Made by a program: the position numbers and the translations under genes. Shown here piece after piece: positions 3,651-55,595 of a stretch of 64,000 nucleotides of DNA. The notes beneath the pieces were generated by a model, which was given only the letters and a program-made list of their open reading frames with translations, was not told the DNA's origin and ran no database searches. Numbering within the stretch: the stretch's first letter is position 1; each line of letters starts with the position of its first letter. The DNA is from Psammoneis japonica (taxonomy: Eukaryota), in the NCBI GenBank assembly GCA_008632985.1, contig QPGO01000003.1, positions 868,001-932,000 of the forward strand, read 5' to 3'.

Positions 3651-3732
3651 AGAGGATTTGCCTTTCCTCGAGGAAATGCCCAGTCCACCTTTAGCTCCAG
3701 AAGATTCATTCTTTGGGACTATTGGGATCTGA
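3214..3732 (+). pseudogene. Degenerate ORF remnant, possibly the C-terminus of a transposon-encoded protein
   Basis: 172 aa frame with the segment RQLHLANVEAILDPVAVIPEVG; lies in eroded DNA; family assignment uncertain. Confidence 0.3.
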
Positions 3733-29599: not shown

Positions 29600-29865
29600 T
29601 GACAGAAATTGAAGGCAAATGGCAAGAATTCAAACAACAACCCCTTGCTGCTGTCTAAACAGCAGATGAGTCTCTGCCCAGAGACCGTCACAGGAGCCGA
29701 AAGACGTGCAAGTCGGCACAATCGGGCTGCTGCTGTCATTCTTGTGAGCCGAGTGGCTCGAAAGCAAACTGCATCGCGCGCGTGTGCACGGAACTAAAGA
29801 GCACGCGGCAAACTAAACAGCACGAGACATTTCGCGTGCACCCAAATCCTGCTCAAATCCTGTCA
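29600..29865 (-). repeat. 3' LTR of the Copia element
   Basis: TGACAG...CTGTCA termini; near-identical to 36800-37077 apart from a short indel and mostly transitions. Confidence 0.95.
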
Positions 29866-32800: not shown

Positions 32801-33401
32801 GGTTTTGGTGCCGCAGATGTCAGTGACGGTAGACTCGGCACCAACAAACAGTTGGGCGCTGGTGCAACCAGAGTCGACGGCCGGGTGTCAGCACAAACGG
32901 TGTCAGTGGCAATGGGCTCGTTGCGGCGGTGCACATTGAGGGCTGGGTCAGGTGATTTGCAGGCCTTCTTAAGGTGCGCACCGGCGGGCATGCGGGCGCA
33001 TTGCGTGGTGCAGTCGAAAGTACAACGAACTGTGTCGGCAGGTTGGAAACCAAAGTGGGGCCGAAGAGACTCGCAGGGGGGGTCCTTGGGCTGCACATTG
33101 CGCTCCGGAGGCGGAACATCATCGTCCTTGGGGTCAATCGCGTGTGGATGACACTCGTAGAACACGTCTTCATTCGAAATGAGGTGGTCATCGAGGGTGA
33201 ACGCGTGATCGTTAGACAAGGAGGCGGACATGATGGCCTTGTTGACAATGACACGGTGACGGCAGTTGCCTCACTTGTCAAACAGGTTGGCGGTGGGATC
33301 GTCCTGTGGGTCAGAGATTGCGTCGCACCGCTGGTCGTCGTCAGTGATGGAGTGATTGAGGACGGAAGGGTCCCATGTGTCATCACCGGCAAGGATGACA
33401 T

Positions 33402-33797
33402 GACGGGTTCCAGTCCCAGGTGGGACTTTTTGTGACATTGGGCCCACAGAATTCTGCGTGCGAGCTCCGCAGTAAAATTGTTGAGCGGTGGACACATGAA
33501 TGATCGCCAACAGAAAAAGAGGCAATTTTGCGAATGCATCTCCTCCTCCACACTTGAAGCACATTCTTTGCAGCATGCCCGGGTGTGTTCTTTAGACATT
33601 AATGAACACACCCAGTTCATTTTTGTTGACACAAGTGCAGACAACAGAAAGCCTTTGGCTTCGCAAAACAGGCAGTGTGGAACAATTTTTTACAATGGAA
33701 CATGTGGAAATGCACGTGCGAAACACACGACGGATGACAAAAAACAATTGTGTCACAGTTCAGTGGTGCGAGGTCCCACCTAGAGCTGGAACACGTC
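33402..33797. mobile_element. 396 bp MITE, copy 1, inserted in Copia pol
   Basis: Imperfect TIRs GACGGGTTCCAGTCCCAGGTGGGAC / GTCCCACCTAGAGCTGGAACACGTC; 4 bp TSD ACAT; excision restores ...TLPHVILAGDDTWDP. Confidence 0.93.
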
Positions 33798-36700
33798 ACA
33801 TGTGGCAGGGTGTCCCATTCGTCATCAGTGCAGGGCCGCATGGCAACACAAGGCAGGCCACCTTTGATGTCAACAGGGATGACACAGCCATCAGGGGTGG
33901 CGACACGCTGCAAGCCGTTGGGCACCTTGACAGAGCGATCATTGACATCGTGTTTGTGCCATTCGAGCTGGCCACAGGAGTGAATGGTCTTGCCCTTTCC
34001 CGTGCATGCGCACTGATGGAGGATGGCAATGATGGGACCACGCTGTGTCTCAATGATGGCACCAGCGGTGACAATGGGGATGTCCACCAATTGATGGTCG
34101 TCAATGCCCTGAACGTCGACTTGGCAAGAGGTGCGTGCAATGACGCGAACGTCGTCGCCAGCAATGCCGCCGTTGGCTCCACGATCGACCAGAGCACCAG
34201 TGCGTGTGGAGCGATGAGCGGAGGCAGAGTGAATGACATTGTGGTTGTTGACGCGGCGGCAAGTGCGGCCGCCAAGTTCTGTGTCATCTGGAGGAGCAGG
34301 CAAGGCAGAGGGAGCGGCGGATGGGCCCGGTCGACTGGCCTTGGGGGCTTGGTTAGGAGACAACAGGCATTGCAGATCACCGGGTGGCAGTGGCTTGCGC
34401 TTGGTGAGATGTGCCAGAATGGGATTGTCTGAAGTGGCGTCCACATTCGGAGCGGGATCACCAGAGTCCGCTAGAGTCATGGCGGACAAGTTGACATCAC
34501 CGTCACTCCCAAGTCATTGGTCGTGAAGGTTGACCGCAACAGACTCATGGCAGTTGACTGCTTGTGGGTTGCGAGGAGGTGGACGAGAATGCTCAAGGAT
34601 GATCGCCTTGGAGGAATGGGGCAATGAATCCCAAATCCATTGGTGGTCGGGAGGCAGACGTTTCCATTGGTCGTTGGTGAGGCTGGGACCACGGGTGCAG
34701 GCAGCGTCAGCCTGCAGGACGTCAATGTCACTGTCGATGTCATAGAACACATCATCGGATGGTTCCTCGGAGCAGACGTCGTGTGCACACATGGCGCGGC
34801 GGGGAGCTCGAGGTGTTGTCTTGGGTTGAAACATGCTGTCACATTGAGCCGCCGCGGAGAGGAGCAAGCCACAATGTTGATCACACGTGAGGCTCTTGCC
34901 ACTCTGCGTGCGATGTTGGTCAGCTTGGTTCTTGACGGCGCGGAGTTCCTCGACAGGATGTGTGGCATTCTCGAGCATGACGCGCTTCTGTCCTTCAGAG
35001 AAGTGGTCACTGGCCGGGATGAGTGCCTCGCACTTGCGCAACTGATCCTGCCAATGAAGGATGAACCCGTGGGTCGGACCTTTCCAAGCACCATCACCAA
35101 GGCGTGTGGTGGTGAGATGTGTGAGCAAGGTGGAGGACTCGACAGATGCGTGGGTGGAGGCGAGCGCACACTCGGACAAGGTGCGGTGGACGGTCTGGGC
35201 ATCAGAAGATCCCACATTTTTGCGAATGAGAGCTTTGCCCTTGTCGGTGAGAAGGATGCGTTCGAAGACGGCGAACATGTGCTTTTGCTGTTCAGCAAAG
35301 AGCAGTTTGTCTTCGGGGCTGGTCGGTTTGTACGACGAGTCTAGAGTGCACTCAACGTCTTGGGCACGGGCTTGTGCCACAAGTGAGGTGTGCCAAGTGT
35401 GCCATTGCTTGTCAGATTTGAGAGCCGTGAAAGCAGTGGGGTCGCGCTTGATGCCTCGCTTGAAGTCTCGCACTGGGTCGCGTGCCTTGGTTGGGTTGGT
35501 GACGTGCGGAGGTGCAAGAGGTGAGTTGCCGACAGACACAGAAGACATGCAGTCAGGACTGAGGCGGCAGGCAAGGAACTCATCATGCGTGAACAACGAA
35601 GAGTCATTGGCAACATCGAGGCCCTTGTGTGCTTTGACAATGTGCAGACTGACTAGAGCTGCTGACATGTTCTTGTGACCTCGGGGCAATGGGATGACAT
35701 TGGTGCCGTTGTCGCACTCAAGCAAGTCGATTTGGGAAGGTGTGAACGTGAACAGTTCTTGGCACGAGTCCGTGCCGTCGTGGGTCAAAGCCAAACAAAG
35801 AGGACTTCCAGCACCTTGGGCAAGCACGGTTCCAACAACGTGCTCGAAACCATCGGTTTGTTGCTGACGAGTGAGAACCATGACAGGCAAAAGCGGTGTC
35901 AGTGCAAGCGATTCTTGGCAGGACGCAGAGGCAGACTTGAAACTTGGGCAGAAATGGACTTGACTTGAAATCTTGAACTGTCTTAAAATCAGAAGTCGCC
36001 GGGCTGTGCTGTCCTGTTTGTTGTCAAGTGCTGAACCTCCCATCCGGTCCGTAGAGTTGTGCCAGCACGTCTGAACCCGCAGCCAGCGGCGCTTTGGGTT
36101 GCTTGCAAGCGGAGCAGTGGGTTGTAAACCCCTGCAGGCAAGCTGACTGGAGGTGGACAAGACCCCCGAACCGTTCTCATTTTATGTTGGTTGGATTTCC
36201 CGATCAGGCTGGCCAGTTGACGCAGGCGCCAGGCGCTGTGGACGAACGAACAAACGCGGGAAAATGCCCTCGCCCCAACGCAGGCTGCAATCACGGCTGC
36301 TTGCTCTCACAGTCATCCTCATGGACCTGGTGGAACTGCAGAGCACCAGCAGTCCGGGGCAGATCAGGTGCAACAGACTCGGTGTGCTTGTGGAGTGGCA
36401 GCAAAGCCGCAGTCCAAAGAGTGGGTTCAAGTTCTTGGCCGTGAAGACACACGTGTGTGTCTTCAGCGATGAAGATCTTTGAATGTGCAGGGTTCTTGAC
36501 CATCAACCGTTGAATGGGCACATCAAGGAATGAGGATCAAGGACAGACTTGGATGCAACCGTTGAGTGCATGTCTTCAGCGACAAAAGGCAGCACAATCA
36601 ATCCAGACATCCAGCGGCAAGGAGACTTGACGGTGACGTTAAATTCCTGCCGATGCCTGGTGTTGAATGCACGTGGACTTGCCGATGTACACGCAGAACA

Positions 36701-36799
36701 CACACGGAGGTCCGCGCAGAATTGAAACAGCGTTGTCGGTAAATCAACGATGACGATGGCGGTTGCTCAATGGGTTGACAATGAGCAAGACTGTCAATC

Positions 36800-37077
36800 T
36801 GACAGAAATTGAAGGCAAATGGCAAGAATTCAAACAATGGCTCCTTGCTGCTGTCTAAATGGCAGATGAGTCTCCGCTCAGAGACCGTCACAGGAGCCGA
36901 AAGACGTGCGAGTCGGCACAATCGGGCTGCTGTCATCATTCTTGTGAGCCAAGTGGCTCGAAAGCAAACTGCATCGCGCGCGTGCGCGCGGAACTAAAGA
37001 GCACACAAAACTGTGCGCGGCAAACTAAACAGCACGCGACATTTCGCGCGCACCCAAATCCTGTTCAAATCCTGTCA
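36800..37077 (-). repeat. 5' LTR of the Copia element
   Basis: Pairs with 29600-29865; TG...CA termini. Confidence 0.95.
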
Positions 37078-37129
37078 GTGAATGGCGGACACCATGGACT
37101 GGCTTGTTGATTCTGCCAACGTTTTGTCT

Positions 37130-39530
37130 TTGTCAAAGGTCACACTGCCATTCCTTTCAACGTTTGTGAGGGTTGGGCTTCTTGTCTGCCTTTCCCACAA
37201 CTGTCCGTTCTGGTCAGAGGCGCGACACCCTCAGATTGTTGCGAAACGCGCTCTTCTTGCAAATCTTCCATGAAGTCATCCACCACGTAAAGAGGTTTTG
37301 GTGAAATCAGGGCCCAATTAAAACATCTTTTGTTCAACACAAAATCATGGTGTGTGGCAGGCGTGGAGCTGGGAAAACAATGGCAGCAACTGAGGCTCTG
37401 TTTTGGACAAGCGACAGGCACGACAACAAGGTGGAGTCTCGCGGCTGCGAACATGCAACTGCAGAAATGAAAGAACATTGGAAAAACTTGTTCAATCCTG
37501 TGAACCTGACCCACATGCAGCATGTCTGTCTCAAGATCAAGAGCGCCTGCAAACCTCTTGTTGTCGCGGCTTCTTCCGCCGAAGCACAGGGTGAGTCAAA
37601 AACAGTGCTGAGGAGCTTGCTGCATTCTTGCAAGACAGAATCACAGCACAACACAAAACGCATTTGACTTGCTGTCAATGTGTCATCTTCTTGTGCCAAC
37701 CTCCACATGAAGACAATCTTCACAGTGCTTTGAGCATGTCCCGCATGTTTTTGTTGGACTCCTCACCCCAAATGAAGCACATGCCCTCATTTGGTAGAAG
37801 AGTTGCCGTCAAAGTGGGCTCAAACACAGAAACGGACAGTGTCACTTAAGATCACTTCAAAGCTGGGGTGTCACATTCTTTCTGTCAATGCAGCAGATGT
37901 GGGAGTTTGTTCAGCGCAGCTGGAAAAGGCAGTCTCCAGCTGGGTCTGGAGCGCCATGGTGCGTGTGGGGCATGCTTGGAGCACCAGTGCAAGAGCTCCA
38001 GACTTCAGGACACCACACCTGTTGGCTTGAACACTCAGCACTCCTTTTGTGAGTGTCAGGAAACCAGTGGGAAATGATGTCCTTTCTGGGCTTGGAGCAA
38101 CAGCAAAGACAAATCGACATCCCGGGAACGCTTGCCACCACAGCTTGTGGTCACTCAAGGCATCCATCCAGACCTGAAGCAACCTTGCAATGCTCTGTGA
38201 AGCATGCCATGCTGCGCTGGAGCGCGCCACAGTGATGACACCAATTGCATCATGCCCAGGCAAGTGCTTTTGAAAAATGAGGTTTTGAAGCAAAAAGAGG
38301 GAAAAAAGGGGGGTTTTGAAATTGTTCCTGCATTTTGGAGTGTGGGACGGGACCTGTTTTGGGTCACAAAGCAAAAAAGTGGTGATGGTTGATGAAAGTC
38401 ATGCATGAAAGACAGTCAAATTTTCAGAATGTGTCACAGGTGCAATGGACAATGCCCCCAGTGTGCGCCAAGAATGACGTGCACAAAATCTCCCCAATGG
38501 AGTTTTTGCCAAAAATCCACACAGTCTGCAACCTGGTCTTGTTGGGGATGCAAAACATGCACCCTCGGCAGACCAAGTTGGTTGTTGCCAACATGCAGCA
38601 TTGGTGCACTCATGGCAGCCTTCAGATGATGCACCTCCTTGCACAGTGAGGTTTGCTCCTGCGATGGCTGCTTTGGCCCCAAAAATCTCCCAATGCCGGC
38701 ACCCCCCCACCCACCTGATCCACTGTGGCATGTGCGGCACAGTGCAGCCCACCTGGACTGGCATGTTAATTTTGCCAATGTTTTCCCTTTGTTGAAGGTC
38801 ACACTGACACTCCTTTAAATCTTTCTGATGGGGTGGGCTTGTCTGCCTTTCTTGCAATGGCTCGTTTGGTGGGTCAGGTGTGAGGACGCCTTTGGATTGT
38901 TGAAAGGTGCTGTTTTTTTGCAAATCTTCCAGAAAATCTCCTGCCATGCAACAAGGTCTTCAGTGAATTCAGGGCCCAATTGAAACATTCTTTGTTCAAT
39001 GCAGTCACCATGGTGTGCGGCAGACATGGAGCTGGAAAACAATGGCAATCAAAGCTGTTTTTTGGACAAGCAACAAGGCCATGACAGGGTAGAGTCTCAT
39101 GGCAGATGTGCACGAATCTGCAACTGTGGAAATGAAAGAACTTTGGAAAGACTCATGTTCAATCCTGTGGACCCAACCCATGTGCAAGATGTCTGTCTCA
39201 GGATCAAGAATGCCTGCAAACCTCTTGTTGTCATGGTTTCCATTGAAGCACATGCCAAGCCAAAAACGCTGGGGAGCTCACCACATTTTTGCAAGACAAA
39301 ATCGCACAACACAAAAAGCACTCAATCTGTTGTGGATGTGTCACCTTCTTCTCAACAAGAAGACAGACTTCAAAGCATTTCAAGCATGGCACATTCCACA
39401 TTGTTGTTGGACCCCTCACCCCAAGTGATGCAAGCACATTTCCATTTGATGGAAGAGCTGTCATCAAATTAGACTCAAACCCAGAAACAGACAGCATCAC
39501 TTGAGATCACTTCAAATCTGGGGTGTCTTG
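37130..39530. repeat. Two diverged copies (~37130-37875 and ~38790-39530) of an eroded ~750 bp segment
   Basis: Shared anchors AAGGTCACACTG, CAGGGCCCAATT, GGAGCTGGAAAACAATGGCA, CTGCAAACCTCTTGTTGTC, AGATCACTTCAAA-CTGGGGTGTC; both copies are TA-poor. Confidence 0.75.
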
Positions 39531-40305
39531 TTCTTGCTCTCAATGTCATCTGTGCCGAACTGTCAGACGGAATGAGCACTGATGAAGCACTGAGAGTTGT
39601 GCATGCAACCTGCCAAGAATGCAAGAACAGTGCTTTGAATCGACTTGGCAAGTTTTACAGCTTCGCAGCTGTCAAGTTGAAGAAACTGCCAGACAGTCCA
39701 CGCTCTCTGGTTCTATAAAGATGTGATGGTCTGGACACAAATGGAATCCGAAGCCTCATTGCATGCCTCACTGTCACCAGCTTTGCGACCCCAATCAAAG
39801 GACTTGGTTCACCCCACATCTTTGAAATCAACCCTTCCTCAGAAGAAGTGACACTGGGCGGATCAGGGATGAAGGATGTTTTTCTGGAGCATTGTCGAGA
39901 ATAAATTTGCCTGCAGATCACAGTCGGAGTGGCGAAGCAGGATTGAACACATAATGAACATTGCCAACTTATTGCAACTCACGGGTGCCCGGGGTTTCAA
40001 ATCGAACGACTCTCTAGCTAGAACTATCGGCAAAAGTTGTTTTGGTGGGAATGAAAGGAAACCGACTCTATTGTCTCCCCGGTCTACGTCTCTTTCTGCC
40101 ATGCGGTACTCTCCATGTGGGAGTTCGGACAACACAATTTCGAAAAACTCAATGGCGCACCATTCCGCCACAGCAAAGTACAGTAGCTACTCACTCCCAT
40201 TGTCACGGAATCAAATATTCTATTGTTTTTAGTACATCCACCGTCATGCATACACAATATCTCTAAAGCAACAAAAGCCCTCTTCATGCAGCCACGCCAT
40301 TTTCT

Positions 40306-42496
40306 TCAATGACTCGGAGGATCCGACAAGAGAAGATGCGTCGGTTCATTCTGTCCATCATCCACGGTCGTCATTTCTTTCTTGTCCATGAGACAGACCC
40401 GCTCTTCGTGACAACCGTACGCGTGTGGTGTCATTTTAATCACGGAATGCAACGGAATGGATACATACGGTGCATCCTTGCGGTCCAGGCCCATAAAGTA
40501 GGCATAAATAATGCGCAAAATGCCCTGATGGGCAACAATGAGAATGGGTTCACGGGTGCGTTCCATTTCGTGTGCCAATGGTTCCAACCGTAACGTCACG
40601 TCCATGTAGGATTCGCCTGAATTGTAAATTATTGTGAAAACGGGGGAGAGTGGTGTTGACCATATTTGTAGGTTGCACGGCGGCGACGTGTGTGAGCGGA
40701 TGCGACATCATGTTGTAAACGAGACAGGGCGAAATAACATCATCATCATCATGTGGAATCATCATTGGGCAATTGTTGTTCATCTTGACCATCAAAGAAA
40801 TCTTCCTTGTCCATGAGACAATGTTCCTTGACATGACATCCGTAGGCATGAGGCGTCAATTCGAGAATATTATTGAGAGGAACCTTGACGTAGGGAGCCA
40901 TGTTTCGATCCACTCCCATAAAGTAGGCATAGATAATTCTCAAAATGCCTTGATGACACACAATCAAGACGGGTTCTCGGGTCCGTTCCATTTCGAGTGC
41001 GATGGGTTCGACACGCAAAATGACATCCATATAAGACTCACCTTTTTTAGTATCATTGTTGAAGATTATGGGTTGAATACCACAGAAATACAATGATATA
41101 ACAAGACTCAATCAAATTGAGCAAGAACTTCCCATTCAATACACACACACTCATTACAAAAAAAATAATAAACTCACCTCGCGGATACCGGTACGCGAGT
41201 TTGTCGTGTTGACGTCTTGCAAATTCTTCGGGAAACAATTCTTCAATCTCCTTATAGGTCATGCCATCGCACGTTCCGGCATACAATTCATCCAGATTAC
41301 GCCGTGCCATGGGACGGAATTGCATCCACGGTCCCGATTCGTCATTGTCCCAACGGTGTTGCATCATGTCGTGCTCGATAAATTGCGCCGTCTCCTTGGT
41401 ACGACGCAGTGTGGACGTCCAAAGACGAGCCGGGCGTTGTTTGGTCACCTCCAAACCCGTTTCTTCATCCACGTGGGTTTCGACGGCAATGTGCTCCTTG
41501 GCAAACTTGGCAAGGCGTCGGGCATACTCGGTTCCGGCCGGTGTCAGACCCGAATCTCCACCAATTTTGCCCAACAAGTTGTATTCGCTTTGACCGTGTC
41601 GGGTTAGGAAAAAGGTGCGAGGCAAGAGGTGCAAATTCATCACAAAATGCACAACCTTGAGGGGTAGATATCCCCGAATGTTGTTCACGACGAATCGGCT
41701 GCAATCATAAATCTTGACAAAGGCACCATCCTGTTCGTCAATGGGTTCATAGACGGATTCATATTGGGCACGACGTTCCTTGAAATCCGCCATGGCCTTC
41801 TTGTACTCCATATCACGATAATCCGGTGTGGAGAGCTTCACTTTTTTAATATTTTCTTCGAGAATCTGTAAGAGAGTGGAACAAATAGGAATACTTTAGT
41901 GACTTGTAGATACATCACAACAAACATCCATACAAAACAAACAACACAAACACTCATACCTGTTCGGATTCACAAATGCTTTCAATAAACATTTTCTTAC
42001 ACCCAATCCCGGCCCGTTCGAGTGTTTCGACGATATGCACACGCCGATCACGCGTCGTGTTGGTCGCATCAAAGGCTGCCACACGCACACCATCCTTTTT
42101 CATGAATTGTACCAAATCCGCCAAGGCCGCATCACAGGCTTGATGACGTGCGGCCACCGCTTCGGCATTGGTGGGATCATAAAACGAAGCCGGCAATTGT
42201 GCTCCACACATTTGACGACGGTAATCGCCCACATTGAAAATTTGAGATGGAATGTCGTGGAAGAAGCTTAGGAAACGACAAATGCGTTTGGCCACGTGCG
42301 TCTTGCCCGTGGCGGGCAAACCCACCATGATAATGACGAGCTTGTCCGTGGCTGTGCTTCCAATCACTTCGAGCGGAGCGGCGTTTTCGCCTTCGGCGAG
42401 CGTGTGGGGCATGGGATTGTCTACCATGGTGCTGATGCTAGCAGAAGATGATGTAGTGGAGGAGGAAACGGGCTTTTGAGTTGGGTCGGGTGCCAT
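40306..42496 (-). CDS. PFKFB: 6-phosphofructo-2-kinase/fructose-2,6-bisphosphatase; exons 42496-41960 and 41865-41178, then terminal exon 41041-40749 or 40616-40306
   Basis: MVGLPATGKT P-loop, FNVGDYRR, FDATNTT, LTRHGQSEYN, YRYPRGESY and (C/A)HQG motifs; GT-AG introns in phase. Confidence 0.93.
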
Positions 42497-42948
42497 TGTA
42501 ACATATATATTAGAGTATAAGAAGAAGGCTTGAGTTCAGCGTCAATGCTGTTGTTGTTGTTGTTGTTGTGAGTTGTGAAGCGAAGCGGCATGCGGTCACA
42601 TGCGCGGTCACAACGCTGGCAAAGTTCGTTTTGAAAATTTCGGTCGTTGAGAAGGCTCTTGTGTACAATCTACGTAAGATTGGTAATGAAGCAATTGATT
42701 CGTGATTTTGTATGCTAAGAATTTCAAAAATGACGTCATCAAAACGGACAGCAATCATTCTGTCTGTCCCTCAGCCGTCAGTGACTCATTGATTGCGGCT
42801 TTCTCAAACTCCACGTAGAATCAGTACCAGGTCATACTGTGGATCGGCGCTGTCACGCACGACTTCAACTCAAAAGATACGCACCGTTGTTTTTTGTTGT
42901 TGTGCTGTTGTTGTTGCTAGCACTGTTGGCTTGATTTGTTGTATCACC

Positions 42949-43631
42949 ATGAAGTTGTCCTTGCTCTGTTCTGCTGCTCTTTTGGGTGCTGTTACTGCCT
43001 TTGCTCCCTCTGTTCACACTGGACGTGGCGCAACGTGTTTGGCTGCCACGACGAATCGCAGGAATTTTGTGCAGACAACCGTTGCCATTGGATCGGCTAC
43101 AGCAACGACGCTAGTACTCCCGACTGCAGCCTTTGCCAAAGAGTATGTACCCAAGTTTGACGATGTCAAAATTATTCTAGTTTTGGTGAGTGTGTGACTG
43201 TGTTGTGTGTTCATTGATTTTTGACAAAACACATCACTGTTAACCAACTCACTCTTTTCTTTGTTCAGGGCATGTCCTTGGATCGGTTGATTGCCAAAAT
43301 GGAGGACCCCGACAAGATTGGTGCCGCCTTGGAAAATTTGGGTACGTTTAATCGCGATCCCGACTTTTATCCCGGGTACGCCAAGAATTTTATTTCCAAA
43401 ACTGTGAAAAAACGTGCCGACGAAGATGTGAGGGTGGGGTACATGAAGCAAGCGTGCAAGCTCATTGGATCGACGGAAGAATTGTTGGCCAGTGCTGCCG
43501 TGGACAAGAGTGCCGCGACCGAAGCCATTGATCGTGTAAAGAAAGCGCAGCAACTTATTGCCAAGTTTTTAGCCGAAAGTGGTGTCGAGGATGAAAATGT
43601 GGCCAAGTTTGTGGCGGAACACAAGTCGTAA
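42949..43631 (+). CDS. Predicted thylakoid-lumen protein (signal peptide, transit peptide, twin-arginine signal); intron 43186-43268
   Basis: MKLSLLCSAALLGAVTA-FAP, TNRRNF, hydrophobic stretch ending AFA; helical mature domain. Confidence 0.8.
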
Positions 43632-43864
43632 TGCGTGAGGACGTATAGCATGATAATATATTTGACCAAGCTAGCGAGAAACTAACAAACTAATGTATAG
43701 CTACAATGAATTGCTGCAGGTTATTATCAATGGATTGCTACAGTTACGACTATATAGTCAATCCAATCAACGTGCTCATAAACGTCTGTCTTGTTTGCCT
43801 TTACAACTATTTCTTCTGTAAGAGTCGGCTCAATAGACTGCATTCTGTTCCATATGCATTCTAA

Positions 43865-44980
43865 TTATTTAGTCTCAGTAGACTCAGTAGCAGCTGTACC
43901 CTTTTCAATCAAATCAACTTGCTCCTCTGCATCCTTCTCACTCTTGTTTATCGCTGTTGGCTTCACGGGATTCTTCGTCACAGAAGTGTCTTCTATGGGA
44001 GTCGGATCAAATGCATAATTGCAAATGGATACAATCACCAGCATGCCACCAATGACCATGACGGGTGTCATGATCCCACCCAACCACATGTTATCAATCG
44101 AGGCACTCAGCACAATAGCCGATGTGGTGGCAAGCGTCTTGACGACGGAATCACCGTGCTTGATGGCAAGCGCCACGAGAAGACCACCGGCCGCGCCCAC
44201 GACCGCCAACATGACGGCCACGGGGGACCATCCACCGCCGTAGCCCACGTCGCCACCGCCTCCGGCCACGATGAAACACATGTAAATCGGAAAACTTCCC
44301 AATGCCAATTGAAAGTTGCGTTCCCAAATGCCTAGTTTGGCACTTTCGGGATCATCCTTGATGACTTTTTCAAAGTAAATGGAACAAAAGCCACTCAACG
44401 TGACTTCGGTAACGCATGCAATAATTCCCACAATAACGGCACTCTTGTGTTCCGGCTTGGGTCGATTCGAGTCCTCGACGGACCAAATGGGTTCGGTAAA
44501 CAAGATGACTCCCAGCATGAGGGTAAACAAGGCTCTCCATCGGGACCACGAGTAACTTCGTTTCAGTATAAATGTACTACACAGTGCCGTGGATAGAATT
44601 TTGCATTGCGCCAAAATCGTAAAGGTTCCAGCATCAATGGTCCGTAGTGCGACAAAGCCCAATATATTCATGAGTCCATAAATACACGCCAACAGAATCA
44701 TTTTGCGACTGGATAAAAGGAGAAACCACAAGTACTTGACTCGAGATTTTGTTTGTTCGGACGGAACGGAAACCATAAAGATGGAAAAGATCAATTTCAA
44801 AACTTCTGCCACGAGCAACACTTCATGCTTGGAGTAGGTTTCTTGCAACACCCCGAGGGAATACCGTCGCAGCGTCGTGTACATTGTATTCTGAAGACAT
44901 AACAACACCAACACAAGCAGTTTGGTCTTGTTGATGCTGTCGAGTACTTCTGAAATCGATGAGAGTGAAATCAACGTCAT
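43865..44980 (-). CDS. Nucleotide-sugar transporter (SLC35A family)
   Basis: Multi-TM protein; AEVLKL, DAGTFTILAQCKILSTA, SGFCSIYFEKVIK, IWERNFQL, GGLLVALAIKHGDSVVK. Confidence 0.92.
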   Translation of the reverse strand: MTLISLSSISEVLDSINKTKLLVLVLLCLQNTMYTTLRRYSLGVLQETYSKHEVLLVAEVLKLIFSIFMVSVPSEQTKSRVKYLWFLLLSSRKMILLACIYGLMNILGFVALRTIDAGTFTILAQCKILSTALCSTFILKRSYSWSRWRALFTLMLGVILFTEPIWSVEDSNRPKPEHKSAVIVGIIACVTEVTLSGFCSIYFEKVIKDDPESAKLGIWERNFQLALGSFPIYMCFIVAGGGGDVGYGGGWSPVAVMLAVVGAAGGLLVALAIKHGDSVVKTLATTSAIVLSASIDNMWLGGIMTPVMVIGGMLVIVSICNYAFDPTPIEDTSVTKNPVKPTAINKSEKDAEEQVDLIEKGTAATESTETK

Positions 44981-45224
44981 GGTTGTTGTTGTTTACAATG
45001 TGGTACGAACATGAGTCGCGGGAGGAAAAATGCGACCATTTTTCGGGCCGTTGGGAGGAACAAAATTTCGCTTTTTTGATTTAGTCTTGCGTCCGATCAC
45101 GTAGAAGTTGGTACAAAACCTACGTTCGGTCATTGCTGTAAACTGACCGGGCCTCGCGTCACCTTGTTCCATTATTTTAGGCGATCATGCTGCAAATGCG
45201 TGGTGTACGTGTGTTCCCATCTAT

Positions 45225-46650
45225 CCTGCCTGCCTGCCTGTCCTGTGCCTGCGCCTGTGGCGCCTGTGGGACTCTGGAGTTTGACTCGAGCTGGGCCCAG
45301 TCACAAGATGTTCAATGCAATGCATTGTGGAGATGGTTGACAGTGTGAGAAGAAGGTTCTTGTGGAGCCACAAAGCTGCTGAGCCGGGGAGCACAACAAA
45401 CAAGCCACGCCCCCAGATTGCAGCAAGAAACGTCGCCAGTTGCCACACAAACATGTGACCCACATCACTGGCCTGATTGGTTTGAGCGACCTGAAAGCCC
45501 TCAAATCTCCTCTGTCACTGCTGCACAAGGACATGTGCAAGAAAAAACAGCAGCCCCCATGGCACGACGTGTTCCAGCACCAGGTGATGTGCAAAACGAC
45601 AACTCTGTCAGTTTGCACATGTTGGCCACACTTGGCACCAATTGCCCCAAACTCCAGCATGTCAAAAATGCCTTGTCCATGCTCCAGGGAGCTGTTTTCT
45701 CAATGAGAAGCAAATTCCCAAAGTGGTGCCCAACACACATCATGACAGTGAGCGTGGTTGCGCACACAGCAACAGCAGGTGCTTTCCACCTTGTTGTGGC
45801 AACAAAAGTGCACCATCAGAGCCCCCGCATTTTCCGTTTCTCTCTTGTCCAGTGCAATGGCTGCCAACTGATGGAGATTTTGGCAACTTTCAAGTGCAAA
45901 GTCATCATTGTTGCATCCTCTTTTTTGGCCATTTTGACCTCTTGCTCAAAAGAGCAGCACTCGCGACATGAAAACAACGCTGTTGAACCCTTCATGTCCA
46001 TCCAAGCCAGCTTGTGTCATCATTTCTACATCACACAGATCTGTCAAAGTGACCTCATGCAGCAACTTTTGGGTGAATGCAGTGGGTCTGTTTTGGCATG
46101 AAATGTGCCACACAACTGAACAGCAGTTCTTTCATGACACATGTGTCACATCTGCTGTTTCATGTTGTCAACTGGCACACCACTTTCATGGAAGATTGAG
46201 TCTTGCTGTTGCGATGCAGATGGATGCCAATGTGGTGGGATGCAACACTGGTGCAGCACATGACAGGACGCTCATCAACAGACTGTCCAATTGTCAAGCT
46301 AAGACTGCACAGCAAAGATTGTCATCCTCAACCACTGTTGGTGGGACAACATGATGTCTCCAGTGGATGCATCCCAATGAGGTTTATACACTTCCAACCT
46401 GCCTGTCTGGAAGTTTCTTCACTGCCGCAAGTGCTCCTGGAGAGGCGCAGGATTGCGACGACCCTTCGACGTGCGTTGTTTTGGCGAGTTGCGCAAACTG
46501 AGAGAGCATGCTTTACAATGCAATGTGGTTTTCCAAGACGAATTCAAATCCCGTCGTCGGCGATTGCTCGAGTGACGTTTCCACATGCCACTCGAGATTG
46601 GAATGTTTCACTGTGTTGTGAAGAGTTGCAATGACCGGTGGAAAAAAAGA
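45225..46650. other. TA-depleted tract 6 (unclassified degenerate insertion)
   Basis: Essentially no TA from ~45225 to ~46025 and very few after; lies between two TA-normal genes. Confidence 0.8.
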
Positions 46651-46835
46651 ATGGGGTGTGCTCCGGACGAGTGTATGCTCTTTGACATAACGCGTGTGAT
46701 TTCTCATCTTTTCGTTATTTTATTTGTCGTCTATCCCCCTTTTTCGACAAGAGAGAACAACTGGTCGGCATTCGATCGAGTCCAGAAACAACCTCTGTCT
46801 CGCAGAAGTATTGTTTCACATCCATTGCTGCTGTT

Positions 46836-47582
46836 TTATGTAATGACGGGTCGTTGTTCGTACCGTACCTTGGGATCATCGGGTAGTTTCCATGCACAGG
46901 GGGTCATATAGCTCCTGTATAAAACAAAGTTTCGCATCATAAATCGAAGCATCATGGCGGGAGGAAACGATTTATGGCCTTGTTGTTGAATGTCTTGATT
47001 TTTTGCCCATTGGGTATTTACAATATATATGGGTTCCGGCATGATTGATTCTTCTTCCACAATGTTTCCGACAAAGAATCCAACAGAGGGAAAGTTTCGC
47101 CAACAGGCGGAAAACATGGGAGTGTTGCAACAAGTAGCATGTCCCCGAAACATGATTTGAGGATGATGTGGCGCAATCTTGGGATCCAATACGGTCCACT
47201 GCAATTTGTCAGTCGAGCCTTCTTTTGCCTCGGTAATTTCCGACTTGAACACCTGACACACGTGGCATCCCCCGTCGTCGTCCATGAGTGTTGCTGCTTT
47301 CTTATTCTCCTTGCTGTTATCGTTTGTTTCATTTTTATCGGTCACCCACTTGACGTAGCCTTGACAATCATCGCAATAACACAACAACGGCAAAGCGTGT
47401 GTGGAACTGATCCGAAAACGAACATCACCACAATTGCACGCAATCTCCACTTGCAGCGGGGCGGGCTTTCTTGTGTCCTTGTTGTTTCGACGTTTCATCC
47501 ACCAGGCCAACGAAGCTGCCGCTACTAACGATGTTGTTGCAACCAACACGGGCGTCTTATTGTCAGCAGAAATCATCGTCAT
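46836..47582 (-). CDS. GFA/Mss4-like zinc-binding protein with N-terminal membrane anchor
   Basis: IACNCGDVRF, LCYCDDCQ and HATCCNTPM cysteine pattern. Confidence 0.75.
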   Translation of the reverse strand: MTMISADNKTPVLVATTSLVAAASLAWWMKRRNNKDTRKPAPLQVEIACNCGDVRFRISSTHALPLLCYCDDCQGYVKWVTDKNETNDNSKENKKAATLMDDDGGCHVCQVFKSEITEAKEGSTDKLQWTVLDPKIAPHHPQIMFRGHATCCNTPMFSACWRNFPSVGFFVGNIVEEESIMPEPIYIVNTQWAKNQDIQQQGHKSFPPAMMLRFMMRNFVLYRSYMTPCAWKLPDDPKVRYEQRPVIT

Positions 47583-48154
47583 GGCGAAGAATTATCACCA
47601 GAATGCGATGTGCGTTCATGCTCTGCGCGCGCAACACGACTTTTTGCCCGCACGAACGGAGCTGGCAAGGAAGCTGCGGGAAAATCAGGTTATGAGCCAA
47701 AACTAGCGCTCTGATGCTGTCGTGAAACAAGACTGTGTCGTGCGCTGGGTAGGCCATCCACGACCCCATGTTGGCGGAAACAGTCTGCGTGCGGTTCACG
47801 TGAAAGACGCGTTTTTTCAAGAGAACAAGACGATTTCGGCCCTCTAGTTCAAGTTTAAGCCTAGGACCAGATTTAATTCTTGATGGGGTGCTGCCACCAC
47901 AATTGAGAGCCATTGAGCAGCCAGTTTGCATGATGGCAGTGACACAGAAATCTGATGGAAAGAAAATGCAAAAATGAGTGCGCTGCGGCACAGCATTTTT
48001 GTCCGCATTTGGAATCCCTGTCGCAGGCTCCAGCAGCTTACAACAGATGCATCATGCACAGCATCTAAACACACATCATGACTGATGAAAAGAAACAGTT
48101 TGCCATCCATTGCAAATGGAGACAGTGCAGATTGCAGCAACATGCCATTGCGAT

Positions 48155-49277
48155 TCAATCCCTGCGAAATTGCGACCCCGACTGAACCTTGTCTGGCTTC
48201 GGCAATGGAACGTCTTTCGGACTCGGCTTCAGATTTCCACACAAATCTTCTGTGCTAAAAAGACCTTTGCCATGCTCAAATGACAATTGTGCCGCAACAG
48301 CGCAGGCACGGAAACATTGGCCATGCAGGCGGATGTCGTGACGAAAGCGTTGCGAAAGACACCCAAACAGCTTGAGACGATCATTTGCCGTCTCTTGTTT
48401 GTTGCGCACAGCCCCTCTTGCCTTGGCGACAACTTTTGGCTCCATGTGGCGAATCCCACTCGTGCTCTTTACACACTCCGGGTCCTCCGCTCCGTAGCCG
48501 TCATCGGCTTCAACCCTCTCGTTCTCTCCCAAATGGTGCTTGACAGAGTGACGGAAGATTTCGAGATCGGGCCAATCTCCACAAGGAAATGGCCCGTTGA
48601 TCCACACAATGTTGCCGGTCAAAATGCACACACAAACTTCACACCGGAGGCCAGCCTTTTTGAACTTGAAAGAATGAAATGCCTTTGGGTTTTTCCCTTG
48701 GCTGGTCGCTTGACAATCGGTGCAATCGACTGTCGCCAAGCAGTCGAGGCCCTTGTCTCCAACGAGACGATTCGACCACACAATCTGTGAAATCCGCAGA
48801 GGAAAAGGTTAGACTGAGCATCATTCACATGACACAATCAGGCTGAAAACTCACCACTTCGAACTCCAGGTGCGAAACTCGGTCAATGAAGAACCAACCC
48901 CACTTGCGAAACATCTGTTCGTCAACTCCGCCGCATTTACAAGCAAGGTCTTCTTCGGTTTTGCATGTTTTCACCAAAAGCAATGCCCAGAGCAGATGAA
49001 CTGGCTTTGCATGTTTCTCATCTTTATCTGGCTCTGATTCTGGGTCGGGAACGCCAATCCTCAGCCTGGTCCAGACGTCGACACAGACAGCGGGCTCAAC
49101 AGCAAAGTGAGATGTCCACCGTCAGTCGAACACCACTTCGCTCCCAGTCCACGGGTGGCAGTTCATGATTTCACTGCCAAGTTCAATGAATGTGTCGTGG
49201 TTGGGACCCAGCTTCTTCTTTGTGGGGGGTCCTGCCGCGGCATCGCCCTGTGGGCGTCGTCGAGTCAACGACATCGT
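48155..49277 (-). mobile_element. PIF/Harbinger-ISL2EU-type DDE transposase pseudogene
   Basis: TVDCTDC, FHSFKFKKAGLRCEV, GNIVWINGPFPCG-WPD, VEADDGY, QETANDRLK; N-terminal HLLWALLLVK segment; frameshifts and stops. Confidence 0.85.
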
Positions 49278-50349
49278 GGAGTGTCGTTTTCTCCGCAAAA
49301 CTGGGCCCGCCAAGATGGATGCAACATCAATGATTCTTACACAGTCTCGAATGTGCATTTTTTGGTGAGCCGTTAAAAGTCATGCTTTGATGCAGTGCGG
49401 TTGTGCGACGACACAGGCGAACGCTTTCGAACTGCTTCGCACAGCACCGTGATGTGCGATGCTCAACAGCTGTGATTTGAATTAGAGTTCTCAATCCATT
49501 GAGGTCACATGACAAAATGCAACACATTGGCTTGTGTGTGTGTGAAGTGTGGTTTTTGCATCTGTGGATGTGCAATTTTTCAGAATCTGGAATTTTGACC
49601 GGACTTTTCGATTTTGACCGAAAAGAGAAAGTCCGGTCAAAATTCAAATTTTCGGTCAAAATGAGCCGAAAAAAAAGAGGTGTTTTCGGCTCACTTCAGT
49701 GGCCTGCTGTCTGTAACCAAAGCCCGTTTGATGGCAGGCCGATGCTTGTTCAAGGAGCACCACACAACTGCTGTTCAGAATCATCCTTCTTCATGTTGTC
49801 TGCGGATTAAATCCAAAGATGTACAAGGTTGCACAGACATGAAAAAACTGACCTGAAAATGGTTTTCAGCTCACTTCAGCCTCATTCACATTTTGTGTGA
49901 TTGCATCAGACGGCAGTGCTGAGGCACTTTCTGATTGCTTGTTTGTGCAACTCTTTGATGGTGTGTCATTGTGTTGTCCAACGGCCTTTCGTGTGAAGAT
50001 GGGAAGGATTGAAGTGACCGGAAAATGAAAAAGACCTGTTTGAAATTTCGGGCCGAATTCGATTTTTCCGGTCGGATTAATCGGACATTTGTTGCTTGAC
50101 CAGAATTCTCTCAACTGACCGGAAATTTGGCGTTGATGTCCAATGATCACATTCAGTTTTAAAGCTGTCATTGTCAGTGTTGCCACAAAAGCTTGCATGT
50201 GATTTCATTGCATGTCTCTGCGTCACTTGCACAACGAAAACGTGGCATGGTGCATGCAGGCAGCCCAAACGAAGTCTCTCGATGGCTTTCGAAGAACAAA
50301 GCCAAGGCTCCACGCTCACTCAGGAGCCAAGATGCAGACGCATCCACCC

Positions 50350-52059
50350 GCACTTCTGAGCTTGATCATTGTTGTTTGCTTGCTCCTGTCAATGGGACCG
50401 CGTTGGGGAACAAAGCAACGTCACGAGTGCACTGAGCACTTTAACTTGTTCCACACCAGCAAAGGCAAAGAGGGCTGGGACCCGAACAACACCGAGGAGG
50501 CGCATGTCAAGTCCAAGGTCACGACGTCGGAAATCATCCGCCCGTTTCTGCATCGAAACCTTGGTGGTCACAAGGATCACAAATCGTCTGACAAGGCTCT
50601 TGGTGGCTACAAAAGAGCCTCCAGTGAGCATTTTGTTGAATTGGCCATTGACGGAACCCATCGAAGTGCATGAATTGTCGCTTCACCCTGTTGGTTGTTG
50701 TTCATGCTCACATTCGCCGCGACTCACGATGATCTTTTTTTTCCTTGAGACGCGTTCCAGCTCTGGGTGGGACCTCGCACTGCTGAACTGTGACACAATT
50801 GTTTTTTGTCATCCGTCGCATGTTTCGCACGCACATTTCTGCATGTTCCATTATAAAAAATTGTTCCACACTGCCTGTTTTGCGAAGCCAAAGGCTTTCT
50901 GTCATCTGCATTTGTGTCAATGAAAATGCGCTGGGTGTGTTCTTCAATGTCTGAAGAATGTGCCCGGGCATGCTGTAAAGAATGCACTTCAAGTGTGGAG
51001 GAGGAGATGCATTTGCAAAATTGCCTCTTTTTCTGTTGGCTGTCATTCATGTGTCCATTGCTTGACAATTTTACTGCGGAGCTCGCATGTAGAATTCTGC
51101 GGGCCCAATGTCACAAAAAGTCCCACCTGGGACTGGAACCCGTCTTGACAGAAGCATGCCTGGCAGACAAGGAGAAAACAGGCGCATGGGCAACTCAAGA
51201 AACAGCAGGACAAGGGGTCGCATGGCTGCCGCAAGGAGGAGATGACAACGACGACTGCGACAGTGCCGACGACAGCGACTGCGAGTTCGAGGAGCAAGAA
51301 GATGAATCTGAGGAGGAGGCGGATGACAAAGGCAACAGCGACGAGCAACAAGAACCCATGAGCACTGGCAATGTGAAGAGCCCCAGTGCTGCACCAAGCA
51401 AGAAGTCCAAGACAAAGAGGACTCCCAAGAGCTCCTCGAAAAAGAAGCAGGGCGCAGAAGACTCTCGTCTTGCAAGAGAAATGCAGGAGAAGCTGAACAT
51501 CTCCAGCTGCGCGCGCCACGTCCGAGACGACATTTTGCCATGCTCCCTTCATGTCTGGATGGAGCCGGACTCGGGGATCAACTACGTCACGATCGAAATC
51601 GAGCTCCTTGGCACGATGGTGGCGCAGGACTGCAAGCCGAGCATCGCACGCGATGGTGCAGAGGCAACTGTGGAGTGCAGGTTCCCAAATGGCGGGGACC
51701 TGATGGACCCAGCACACCTTTTGTTGACTCACAAGGATCACATTGATTTTTCAGATCAGCACCCGAAGCATTCAGCTAAGCAGAAAGCAATGAGGGCCTT
51801 GAAAGAGTTGAGCTTTGACAAGGAAGAAGACAGGAAGCTCCACATTGAGCTTCCTTTCCCTTGCGATTCGAGTGGATTCTATGATCCACTCAAGGATGAG
51901 GATAACCAGCATCCAGCGGTCAACCTGCATCCGATTCATCCATGGGAGAGTGTTCCTGAAGGTGCACCGAAAGCATCTATGAAGAAACTAGAGCTGACCC
52001 TGGAGAGCTTGGAAAAACCTGGGCGTGCGCAAGAGGTCGTGTCGGCCAGTTTCTTCTAG
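50350..52059 (+). pseudogene. Probable second (accessory) gene of the Harbinger-like element, divergent from the transposase and carrying a MITE
   Basis: Coding-like segments ~50450-50670 and 51150-52059 (acidic tract, then YVTIEIELLG...LHIELPFPC); head-to-head with the transposase in the same eroded tract. Confidence 0.45.
50749..51144. mobile_element. 396 bp MITE, copy 2 (inverted relative to copy 1)
   Basis: Same TIRs and length as 33402-33797; 4 bp TSD TTGA (50745-50748 / 51145-51148). Confidence 0.93.
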
Positions 52060-52879
52060 GCAGCAGCACACAATGTAGTTGTAAATCTAGATTGCATTGT
52101 TTGGGGTGCTTTTGGCTAGCTCTAATTTTTCTGTAGGATGTTTTTCAAATCTAGCTCTTGCTTGTGCAAGGCACTTGCTTGCGAGCAGCATGTGCTGGGC
52201 CGACTGATGGGGTCCAGCACTCCTGGATGAAATCAGAGTGAGAATGTCAGCCTGGCAAGACATCTGGACAAACTCCTTTCACATCGTAATTGACCTGCCG
52301 TTCACGGCAGTGGTCTTCTTCCCGTGTGGATCCGCAGCTGACCTGGATGCACAGACGACTGATCTGCGCCGAATCCCGTTTCGCGTTTGCAGAACAGGCA
52401 TCCAAACTTTGCGCATCAGAACATGACTTTCCCGCAGCTTCAAGAAGCGCACAGCGCAGATTGCAAGCGAGACTGCATCTGTCTTGCCCCCCGCTTGCTC
52501 TTGCAGTGGACGAGAACATGCAACAGATGCAGATGTGAATGACTGTGATGCAACAACAGATGATTCAGCAAGGTGCACAACTTCAGGCTGGTCTTGATGA
52601 CCGGACACCTGCAGCTCAGGCACTCTTCACCTCAAGAGGACCAAGGCGATTGCTCTCCTTCATCAGCTGCCTTGACGGAAAGAAAGCTGATGTTGCTGAT
52701 TGTTGTTTGAACAAGAACTTGGCAGCCAATTCTGCGATCAAGCACAACAAGGTCTGGGGTCACACAGAAATGAAGCTCCAAATCTCTGACTTTGAGCAAG
52801 CTGGCAATGGGCATTGTCATCTGCATCAGAGCTTGGATGATGACAAATCGAGAACAACACTCTCATGATGACACCGCCA

Positions 52880-53141
52880 GGCCTGTTCCAGCTCCAGGTG
52901 TTCCGCACGGGTTCAATTTCCATCATTTGGAAATTTGTGCATTTGGCGCAATTGACTTTTTCCAAATCCGTTTTTTGCCAAATCGAAGGGTGAGCGCACA
53001 CTTTACATGCATTTTCGGGTGTACACTCACCTTTCGATTTTCGAAACGATCAAAATTGAAGGAGTCAATTGCACCAAACTGCACAGAAAATCGGCCTCTC
53101 TTGCGTGATGAAAAGCAGAGCACCTGGAGCTGGAACAGGCC
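52880..53141. mobile_element. ~260 bp MITE of a related family
   Basis: 21 bp perfect TIR GGCCTGTTCCAGCTCCAGGTG / CACCTGGAGCTGGAACAGGCC; TSD not clear. Confidence 0.8.
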
Positions 53142-53736
53142 AACATGAGATTGATCAGTGATGCTGTGACCCCATTCTTCAGATGACCAACAAGAATGAA
53201 CCTGCATCATCGTGTGATTGATTTGCAATTTTTGACTTCCGATCAATTCTGCATGATCATTCTGACCTTTGTGCGCATCCACGATTGGCGTGCAAAACAC
53301 ATCAGTCATGTGGAGAACCGTTCGGCACATCAAGAAAGGTGGAATCAAATGATGGAACCCTCCCATGCCGACAATGCAAACAACATCGGACGAGACAACA
53401 TCGCCAGCAGGACAATCCCAGGAGAGGCATCCCCCCCATGATTTCATTTCCGGCATGACCGCAGTGGAAACTGCCACCTGGTGAATCATTGCTTCCTCCG
53501 GTTCTCCAAAACACTGACTCCACCGATTGCACATCCTGGAAAATCCATTTCAATCCGTTCCAGTGCAGATTGGTTGCGCAGATCGTTGTGGGTGGACACC
53601 TGAATGATTCCAAAAACATGATGCCCCAAATCCAGAAAATCCGCTTCCTTGGCTTGTCGGCAACCACAATCTGGCAGAGGCGAGACAACAAGTCTTTATC
53701 TGCGAGTGAAGTGTCATGTTGTTTTAGATCAGCACA

Positions 53737-54966: not shown

Positions 54967-55595
54967 TTGTGCTGTTCCTCTCTGTCATGCCGTTGTGTTG
55001 AACACCAATGATGACTTGAAATTTTGTACGAACAACAGCCCCACATGTGATACATCGATGGAAAGCTGAGAGTCTGCTCATTCCATTGGGGGGAGAATGG
55101 GGGGTAAGCACTAACGGTTTGTTCGGAAGATGAGGTGTAAGTTTTAGGTGTGATCATTGAAATATATATATTTATTAAAATAATAAATGTTGCGCCTTAT
55201 TTCTCTGATTGGCGAGGAACCGAAATGGGGGAACGTTTTTGATTGAGACGCTAAACACGATTTGATTTGGACCGTTGATATTTTAGTGCATTCTCCAGAC
55301 ATGAAGGCGTGCACTAAAATACACAGGTCCCGGTGTCAAAAACTCCAATGCGCGACCCTCAAGCATAGTGTTCCCCCATTTCAAAGTCATCGAAAATATC
55401 CAGAAACACGGTACTTCTATACGGTACGATTTTAAAGCGCGACCGTCTGCCTTGCCCCCCGCTCTTGCACTTACTGTACTTCGCGAAATCATCACGACAA
55501 TGGTGCGATGGGGGAGAGTGCGGAGGCGCAACTACATCATGAACATTATGGTGGCGACGAAATATGCAAAACCCATAACATAATGATTATTAGCC

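Follow-up and report, generated by a model that had tools for sequence, protein, structure and literature searches.

Evidence for loss of TpA to TpG and CpA in mobile-element DNA of the diatom Psammoneis japonica

What kind of mutation separates two copies of one transposon when CA in one copy so often faces TG in the other, and TA faces either? The question is raised by a 64,000-nucleotide stretch of the genome of the diatom Psammoneis japonica (GenBank assembly GCA_008632985.1, contig QPGO01000003.1, positions 868,001 to 932,000), referred to here in its full length as the window and numbered from its first letter, which carries two copies of a miniature inverted-repeat transposable element (MITE). 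The original prediction, made from the sequence alone, was that the ancestral dinucleotide at such sites had been TA rather than CG, and that each copy had lost it independently on one strand or the other.

A repeat search in the region 33000–51600 returned the inverted repeat pair 33396–33800 and 50746–51150 (405 nt, 90% complementary), and the predicted limits of the element within it were correct: copy 1 lies at 33402–33797 on the minus strand, inside a copia element, and copy 2 at 50749–51144 on the plus strand, each 396 bp long. The terminal inverted repeats (TIRs) match at 22 of 27 positions in copy 1 and at 21 of 27 in copy 2, and each copy contains five TA dinucleotides, an observed/expected ratio (o/e) of 0.19. 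Target site duplications (TSDs) flank both copies, ACAT/ACAT on the plus strand for copy 1 (33398–33401 and 33798–33801) and TTGA/TTGA for copy 2 (50745–50748 and 51145–51148); they may alternatively be read as 5 bp long (CTTGA and ACATG) when the last C of the element is counted. A BLAST search with copy 2 as the query found only these two copies in the window. For a survey of the family, contigs of three public sequencing runs (X1, X2 and X3) were placed on 50300–51600 at 80% likeness. Run X1 gave 3010 contig pieces on the MITE, 449 of them at least 99% alike, 595 at 95–99%, 1241 at 90–95% and 725 below 90%, and the summed word depth was 34,555–300,719 on the MITE compared with 103–675 in its flanks, a 100- to 1000-fold excess; runs X2 and X3 gave one and no contig pieces, respectively. 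In addition, one X1 contig represents an empty site, joining 50743 to 51144 with 400 bases skipped and five letters shared. The open reading frames (ORFs) that overlap the MITE had no Pfam match, and a metagenome scan with the 3' TIR, allowing Y or R at variable sites, gave no matches. The 396-bp element is a genuine and very abundant MITE, and the view that it is a non-coding element of DNA-transposon type is borne out by its TIRs, its TSDs, the empty site and the lack of a Pfam match.

When the two copies were aligned without gaps, 41 of 405 positions differed, 35 by transitions and 6 by transversions. We classified the pyrimidine–purine (Y–R) dinucleotide columns and found ten in which CA faces TG, three TA/TG, three TA/CA, five CG/TG and no CG/CA, together with 11 intact CG/CG and two intact TA/TA columns; 31 of the 35 transitions fall within these columns. 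All six sites at which TA had been said to face TG or CA are thus present, and the reciprocal swaps, given earlier as about nine, number ten when CACA/TGTG is taken as two. As a count, the earlier figure of about 21 differing sites did not stand, since 24 clusters of differences lie inside the 396-bp element, although the observation itself did. The A-runs are indeed unchanged, with no difference falling in any of them. When 35 random transitions were placed on copy 2 in 20,000 trials, the mean number of CA/TG swaps was 0.6 and the maximum 5. A model of CpG decay taken from the CG classes of the pair itself (11 intact, 5 single) put the loss per copy at 0.185 and the expected number of swaps at 0.28, where ten were observed, and the probability of ten or more swaps under CpG decay alone is 7e-13. 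A model of TA loss with a per-copy probability of 0.87 and about 26 ancestral TA sites, on the other hand, fits both the six single and the ten swapped columns.

Two other origins of the swaps were considered and rejected. A flip of CA to TG by way of a new TA created by an ordinary C>T change would produce about one swap rather than ten, judging from the two or three C/T differences outside Y–R columns. A single symmetric process deaminating both C and A at all Y–R steps predicts that the product of TA and CG equals the square of CA, yet TA and CG are both depleted. An ancestral TA is the best explanation for about nine of the ten swaps in the MITE pair.

The direction of change could be read more directly in the copia-type long terminal repeat (LTR) retrotransposon that hosts copy 1. 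It extends over 29600–37077 on the minus strand, with LTRs at 29600–29865 (266 bp) and 36800–37077 (278 bp) that have TG..CA ends, and it is flanked by the TSD GTGAA at 29595–29599 and 37078–37082. A remnant pol frame at 29816–32842 on the minus strand (integrase end, reverse transcriptase and RNase H; 1009 codons; RVT_2, E = 6.8e-11) contains three stops, all of them TGA, two of which arose by CGA>TGA. Its composition is unusual, with 0.3% Tyr, 5.2% His and 4.0% Cys. Among the 120 homologues listed out of 1325 matches, which include Nitzschia sequences, 119 contain 3.2–5.2% Tyr. The sole low-Tyr homologue among them, P0198, comes from another source and has 1.7% Tyr and 2.2% Cys against a median of 1.1% Cys; it could represent a copia of another organism that has lost part of its TA.

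We aligned the pol frame with the best 60 of the 120 homologues listed (P0121–P0180). At the 24 columns in which at least 80% of the 60 carry Tyr, the window has Cys 15 times, His five times, Arg once and Phe twice, and Tyr is kept only once, so that Tyr is replaced by Cys, His or Arg at 21 of the 24; the catalytic YVDD motif of the reverse transcriptase reads CVDD. Other conserved residues were largely retained: His 18/18, Asn 15/15, Trp 15/15, Cys 4/4, Phe 18/20 and Arg 33/37. Of the 33 Arg kept, 31 use CGN codons, and 31 of 37 CGN arginines were retained; the loss of Tyr (23/24) and that of CGN-Arg (6/37) differ with Fisher p = 4e-10. Compared codon by codon, 416 of the 482 conserved columns show no change and 66 are replaced, by TA>TG in 18 cases, TA>CA in 10, both in one, CG>CA in 10, CG>TG in seven, other transitions in five and changes requiring a transversion in 15; TA>TG or TA>CA accounts for 29 of the 66. 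As a host control we used a single-exon nucleotide-sugar transporter gene at 43865–44980 on the minus strand, whose best matches have 52–60% identity, the named ones being diatoms except for a Tiarina transcriptome record. It retains seven of eight conserved Tyr and none was changed to Cys or His (copia versus transporter Tyr loss, p = 2e-5). The loss of Tyr in copia, compared with the retention of CGN arginines and with the host control, thus gives the direction TA>TG and TA>CA, which the outgroup homologues polarise in sequence comparison. The excess of Tyr>Cys (15) over Tyr>His (5; p = 0.04) was considered as a possible effect of transcription, but this reading was rejected, since Tyr codons always have a pyrimidine at their 3' end, which confounds the comparison. 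The G+C content of the copia block 30001–36000 is 55–58%, compared with 44–48% in the genic islands, as would be expected if one G:C pair were gained with every TA lost.

An LTR retrotransposon inserts with two identical LTRs, and any differences between them arose afterwards. Those of the copia element differ at 18 of 266 aligned positions, and 17 of these differences are transitions. The Y–R columns comprise three CA/TG, three CG/TG and three CG/CA, with 16 CG/CG and three TA/TA unchanged, and CpG decay alone predicts 0.28 swaps instead of three. Swaps between once-identical LTRs mean that the signature arises in place, after insertion. Change after integration is in this way demonstrated for the copia LTR pair; the MITE copies could instead descend from source copies that had already diverged. 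The remaining six LTR differences correspond to about 1.1% per site per copy, and the per-copy loss is about 0.16–0.19 for CG but about 0.9 for TA. As a rough estimate, TA would be lost at a rate that exceeds the background by two orders of magnitude or more and that of methyl-CpG decay by a wide margin.

The same signature was found in other repeats of the window. A second inverted pair, here called pair B (20673–21071 on the plus strand, with its inverted partner at 9670–10068), has 43 differences in 399 positions, 40 of which are transitions, with 13 CA/TG swaps, 15 CG/CG columns and one TA/TA. CpG decay predicts 0.30 swaps in place of these 13, while the TA model fits with a loss of 0.93 and about 30 ancestral TA sites. 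Similarly, an older tandem duplicate (37090–37890 and 38750–39545, in the region 37090–39545) shows 24 CA/TG swaps. Five further repeat pairs, in which transitions and transversions are about equally frequent, have between zero and three swaps each. Pair B itself (20673–21071 and 9670–10124) is about 400 bp long with an internal direct repeat of a period of about 337 bp, and is a candidate MITE or short satellite; a solo 58-bp fragment of it lies at 18150–18207. In an alignment of five sequences of its terminal segment one column reads TA, TA, CA and TG, which is anecdotal.

The contigs of run X1 allowed the columns of the MITE to be seen at the level of the family. Over 50300–51600 they show 156 variable places, 131 of them transitions, and the column-level shares given here come from the 40 of these places that were listed. 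At 50843, 51011, 51014 and 51088 the family has a CG majority (70–97% of depth) where the window copies have CA or TG, which means that CpG is mostly intact in the family. The listed places related to TA have shares of 0.44–0.62. At 50985/50986, the only swap column listed at both positions, T accounts for 52% and G for 45%, with 22 contigs each, which puts TA about 7 points ahead of CG. As far as these listed shares go, they agree with TA ancestry. Taken with the polarity given by the copia outgroups and the 0.28 swaps expected from CpG decay, the retention of CG in the family supports, indirectly but strongly, the view that the swapped columns descend from TA and not from CG. A separate observation concerns the flanks of copy 2 (50300–50740 and 51180–51600), where the X1 contigs differ from the window almost only by exchange of CG with TG or CA: at 50333, 50370, 51243 and 51303 every X1 contig has CG and the window TG, and two X1 contigs (depth 75 and 84) over 51170–51312 differ from each other by about 9%. 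These discrepancies could reflect diverged haplotypes, paralogous repeat copies or assembly errors at CpG sites.

If TA is lost in this manner, where in the window does it happen? Over all 64 kb the o/e values are 0.29 for TA, 0.73 for CG, 1.46 for CA and 1.43 for TG, and the TA profile per kb is bimodal. We pooled 35 windows of 1 kb with TA below 0.2 as the TA-poor set and 24 with TA of at least 0.36 as the genic set, excluding five intermediate ones. The transposon-like 35 kb have TA 0.098, CG 0.59, CA 1.63, TG 1.57 and a G+C content of 50.3%, whereas the genic 24 kb have TA 0.54, CG 0.96 and 46.9% G+C. Individual TA-poor kb windows range from 0.03 to 0.19 for TA and from 1.4 to 1.9 for CA/TG. 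One such block is 30001–40000 (TA 0.03–0.16 per kb), and similar ones lie at 1001–4000, 6001–11000, 48001–55000 and 59001–64000; the copia interior has TA 0.10 and the other TA-poor blocks 0.07–0.16. Non-coding spacers between host genes have TA 0.47–0.91, compared with 0.47–0.52 in three coding sequences, so the depletion cannot be put down simply to an absence of coding constraint. The block edges are about 100 bp wide, the TA count jumping from 0–1 to 4–13 per 100 bp; for example, there are three TA in 54000–54999 and 13 in 55100–55199. Recognisable host genes lie in the TA-rich islands (DegP-like, PDZ, PFK2/FBPase, transporter, EF-hand, CorA and LRR), among them a 6-phosphofructo-2-kinase exon with 52–73% identity to named diatoms, 59% to Triparma and up to 79% to its best matches. 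All affected blocks examined in the window are repeats or transposons. Within this one 64-kb window, the depletion is restricted to transposon blocks with sharp edges and host genes are spared.

The loss of TA also shapes the reading frames. The window contains 72 ORFs of at least 150 amino acids and 123 stop-to-stop frames of at least 130 amino acids, most without a Pfam match, and long ORFs occur in all six frames of the TA-poor blocks because TAA and TAG are rare there. Searches of the window gave no match to Rfam and no array with Tandem Repeats Finder. The most extreme composition is that of 60001–64000 (TA 0.07, CG 0.28, CA/TG 1.8), where neither Pfam matches nor tandem repeats were found, and whose strands are asymmetric (GC skew −0.21 to −0.24, AT skew −0.20 to −0.28), the plus strand being pyrimidine-rich. 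An ORF with an LRR domain, 58237–59166, is situated at the margin of a TA-poor block, with TA 0.37 in 58001–59000 and 0.14 in 59001–60000.

The surviving TA sites are not a random sample. We compared the tetramers centred on TA between transposon and genic blocks and counted ATAT once versus 71 times, ATAC/GTAT 5 versus 132, ATAG/CTAT 6 versus 98, ATAA/TTAT 22 versus 133, GTAC 12 versus 70, GTAA/TTAC 31 versus 120, CTAC/GTAG 35 versus 121, CTAG 17 versus 47, CTAA/TTAG 43 versus 76 and TTAA 40 versus 38. In the transposon blocks ATAT is nearly eliminated and TTAA nearly untouched. A multiplicative model fits this table, in which the A of TA is changed most often when the 3' base is T, then C, then G, and least often when it is A.

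Together these results make it likely that the mobile-element DNA of this diatom undergoes regionally targeted, TpA-specific A:T>G:C hypermutation. Each TA would be hit once, becoming TG when one strand is the target and CA when it is the other, and would then no longer be a substrate. Copies hit independently would come to differ as TA/TG or TA/CA, and hits on opposite strands in both copies would give the reciprocal CA/TG columns, while a slower, ordinary decay of CpG to TpG or CpA would run in parallel. An enzyme may be responsible, most simply one that deaminates adenine in DNA at 5'-TA-3' with a preference for a pyrimidine on the 3' side; an activity directed at T and preferring a purine on the 5' side would be equivalent. 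Recruitment could be by silenced chromatin or by recognition of repeats, and the process may serve in genome defence. Its consequences would be the destruction of Tyr codons and a rise in G+C. A more far-reaching proposal, which we advance only tentatively and which is somewhat more doubtful than not, is that of a programmed inverse of fungal repeat-induced point mutation (RIP): an editing of DNA that would recognise silenced mobile DNA and convert essentially every accessible 5'-TA-3' to TG or CA, with one hit per site on either strand and a 3'-pyrimidine preference, on the scale of the whole genome in a diatom.

Several other explanations have to be weighed against targeted hypermutation at TpA. 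In the most familiar of them, CpG methylation and deamination would act alone, the swaps being CG sites that decayed on opposite strands and TA a rare derived state. CpG decay does occur here, as seen in the five CG/TG columns of the MITE pair, in the four CG-majority family columns where the window copies have CA or TG, in the CG values of 0.18–0.86 in transposon blocks and in the change of CG to CA or TG at 17 of the 66 replaced pol columns. As the sole cause, however, it was rejected: near-complete loss of CG would be required and 11 CG/CG columns stand against five with a single change; the swaps exceed its expectation in the MITE pair, in pair B and in the LTRs; 31 of 37 CGN arginines survive in copia as against one of 24 Tyr; and TA at 0.10 of expectation is left unexplained. 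We regard this explanation as extremely improbable. An artefact of sequencing or assembly, by which a modified TA in transposon chromatin would be misread as CA or TG, is very improbable. In its favour, the effect is specific to one compartment, as would be expected of a modification, and at several places in the flanks of copy 2 every X1 contig differs from the window; moreover, run X1, which is probably the source sample, contains only 0.76 of the sampled words of the window, and an artefact at the level of the chemistry keeps a slight chance. The X1 contigs, built independently from reads, are nevertheless also TA-poor, and at depths of 60–100 they show for each locus its own stable state, CA or TG. 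Of 24 flank rows listed, three create TA (50434, 51360 and 51517), two of these being halves of double changes, and the others exchange CG with TG or CA in both directions. If sites were misread at random where the strands tie, many TA would remain and CG would be created, but CG is in fact depleted. In another alga, this signature was also measured as heritable mutation in Illumina data, according to a preprint (doi 10.64898/2026.01.13.699255).

A bias of TA towards CA and TG throughout the genome, visible only where selection is absent and without any targeting of mobile DNA, would account for the fact that the genic islands are also below expectation (TA 0.47–0.52 in the three coding sequences) and that CA/TG is above 1 everywhere in the window. 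The spacers between host genes, with TA 0.47–0.91 as against 0.07–0.19 in transposon blocks, the jumps in TA count at the block edges, and the low divergence of copia pol outside TA and CG (20 other changes in 482 conserved columns) argue against it, and we think it very improbable. The process may also be real and the differences of the MITE pair nonetheless inherited from two diverged source copies, that is, from subfamilies. MITE mobility needs the ends only, so that mutated copies can still spread, and shares of 0.44–0.62 at many differing columns would also fit two equal subfamilies. The LTR pair proves in-place change in this genome, and eight of the ten swap columns, being absent among the places listed, are not at 50:50. 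An origin of the MITE differences in subfamilies is unlikely, though less so than the other alternatives.

Several observations weigh against targeted hypermutation at TpA as set out above, in addition to the incomplete match of run X1 to the window. The TA model with one rate under-predicts shared TA, both in the MITE pair (0.45 expected, 2 observed) and in pair B (0.15 expected, 1 observed), a misfit for which heterogeneity among sites has to be invoked and which the dependence of TA survival on the flanking context would explain. Three TA, all in CTAAA, are intact in both LTRs, a survival that the flanking-base model accounts for. That rule, however, itself derives from an unpolarised comparison of two compartments, and a check of the gain of NTGN tetramers in transposon versus genic blocks is confounded by baseline composition and too crude to confirm it. 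The CA/TG columns of the MITE itself are polarised only indirectly. At the eight swap columns absent among the places listed, most of the family agrees with copy 2, the shares of TA and CG lying outside the listing, and shares near 50% are expected from two equal subfamilies as well. Neither an enzyme nor a modification nor a targeting signal was observed.

How does this compare with known systems? The closest is described in the preprint cited above (Mettrop et al., bioRxiv 2026, doi 10.64898/2026.01.13.699255), whose main text reports that in mutation-accumulation lines of Bigelowiella natans the integrated DNA of a giant virus and a virophage is hypermutated from TpA to TpG or CpA. According to that text, of 231 mutations in viral insertions 230 changed A to G or T to C, always at TpA and at about 6e-7 per site per generation, a de novo rate about 1000-fold over background that was active in some lines only; the footprint there consists of TpA-poor clusters rich in CpA and TpG and enriched in reverse transcriptase and DDE domains, and an adenine deaminase homologous to ADAT2 is proposed as the enzyme. 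As in Bigelowiella, the changes in our window turn A into G or T into C within TpA, with TpG or CpA as the product depending on the strand, and are confined to foreign or mobile DNA; the excess of TA loss derived from the footprint is, by rough estimate, of the same order as the 1000-fold reported there. Unlike that rhizarian, with its viral insertions and a Rho of 0.45 for TpA, P. japonica is a diatom and stramenopile in which copia and MITEs are affected and TA falls to 0.03–0.19, and more than half of the 64-kb window is depleted. Bigelowiella provides de novo rates, whereas the window is known from footprints alone and offers a flanking-base rule; a search of terms in the main text of the preprint found no mention of diatoms or of flanking context. 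The same source states that ADAR favours U before the edited A.

Fungal RIP, a transition hypermutation of repeated DNA in ascomycetes according to the account in PMC2621366, resembles the process proposed here in that it acts after integration, is dinucleotide-specific, affects both strands, inactivates coding capacity and leaves compositionally distinct blocks. It differs in its chemistry, C:G>T:A at CpA, which creates TpA, whereas here A:T>G:C at TpA destroys TpA and raises G+C. RIP was rejected as the cause, as it predicts an excess of TpA and a deficit of CpA and TpG, and the transposon blocks show the reverse (TA 0.10, CA/TG 1.6). Decay of methyl-CpG is alike in that a self-complementary dinucleotide becomes TG or CA on either strand and reciprocal CA/TG columns arise between copies, but its substrate is CG, not TA. 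Hyperediting by ADAR or APOBEC likewise produces clustered transitions of deaminase type that disable mobile or viral sequences. ADAR prefers a 3' G, however, while the surviving TA sites in the window imply a preference for 3' T or C, and these enzymes act on RNA or on intermediates of reverse transcription, whereas here a DNA transposon and both integrated LTRs were changed in place. ADAR-type hyperediting of RNA before integration was rejected on the same two observations, that a DNA transposon is affected and that the signature also separates the two LTRs of a single integrated element. RIP and APOBEC both act through C>T. To our knowledge, no A:T>G:C hypermutation of invading DNA directed at TpA had been described in any eukaryote before the 2026 preprint, and no report of it in a diatom was found in the literature searched.

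The results suggest that the process is also present in diatoms, a second lineage, where ordinary transposons such as copia and MITEs would be its targets. It can come close to saturation: an element that is otherwise little diverged has lost about 90% of its TA and almost every Tyr codon. This has practical consequences for annotation: the loss of TAA and TAG leads to spurious long ORFs in six frames of the transposon blocks, dead transposon proteins become rich in Cys and His and escape domain searches, and the dating of LTRs and MITEs by their divergence is badly inflated. The flanking-base rule, by which ATAT is lost and TTAA kept, is a concrete biochemical prediction for the enzyme responsible. 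If the programmed inverse of RIP suggested above is real, together with Bigelowiella it would point to an old defence across the SAR supergroup (stramenopiles, alveolates and rhizarians), whose enzyme could be found by comparing genomes with and without the footprint.

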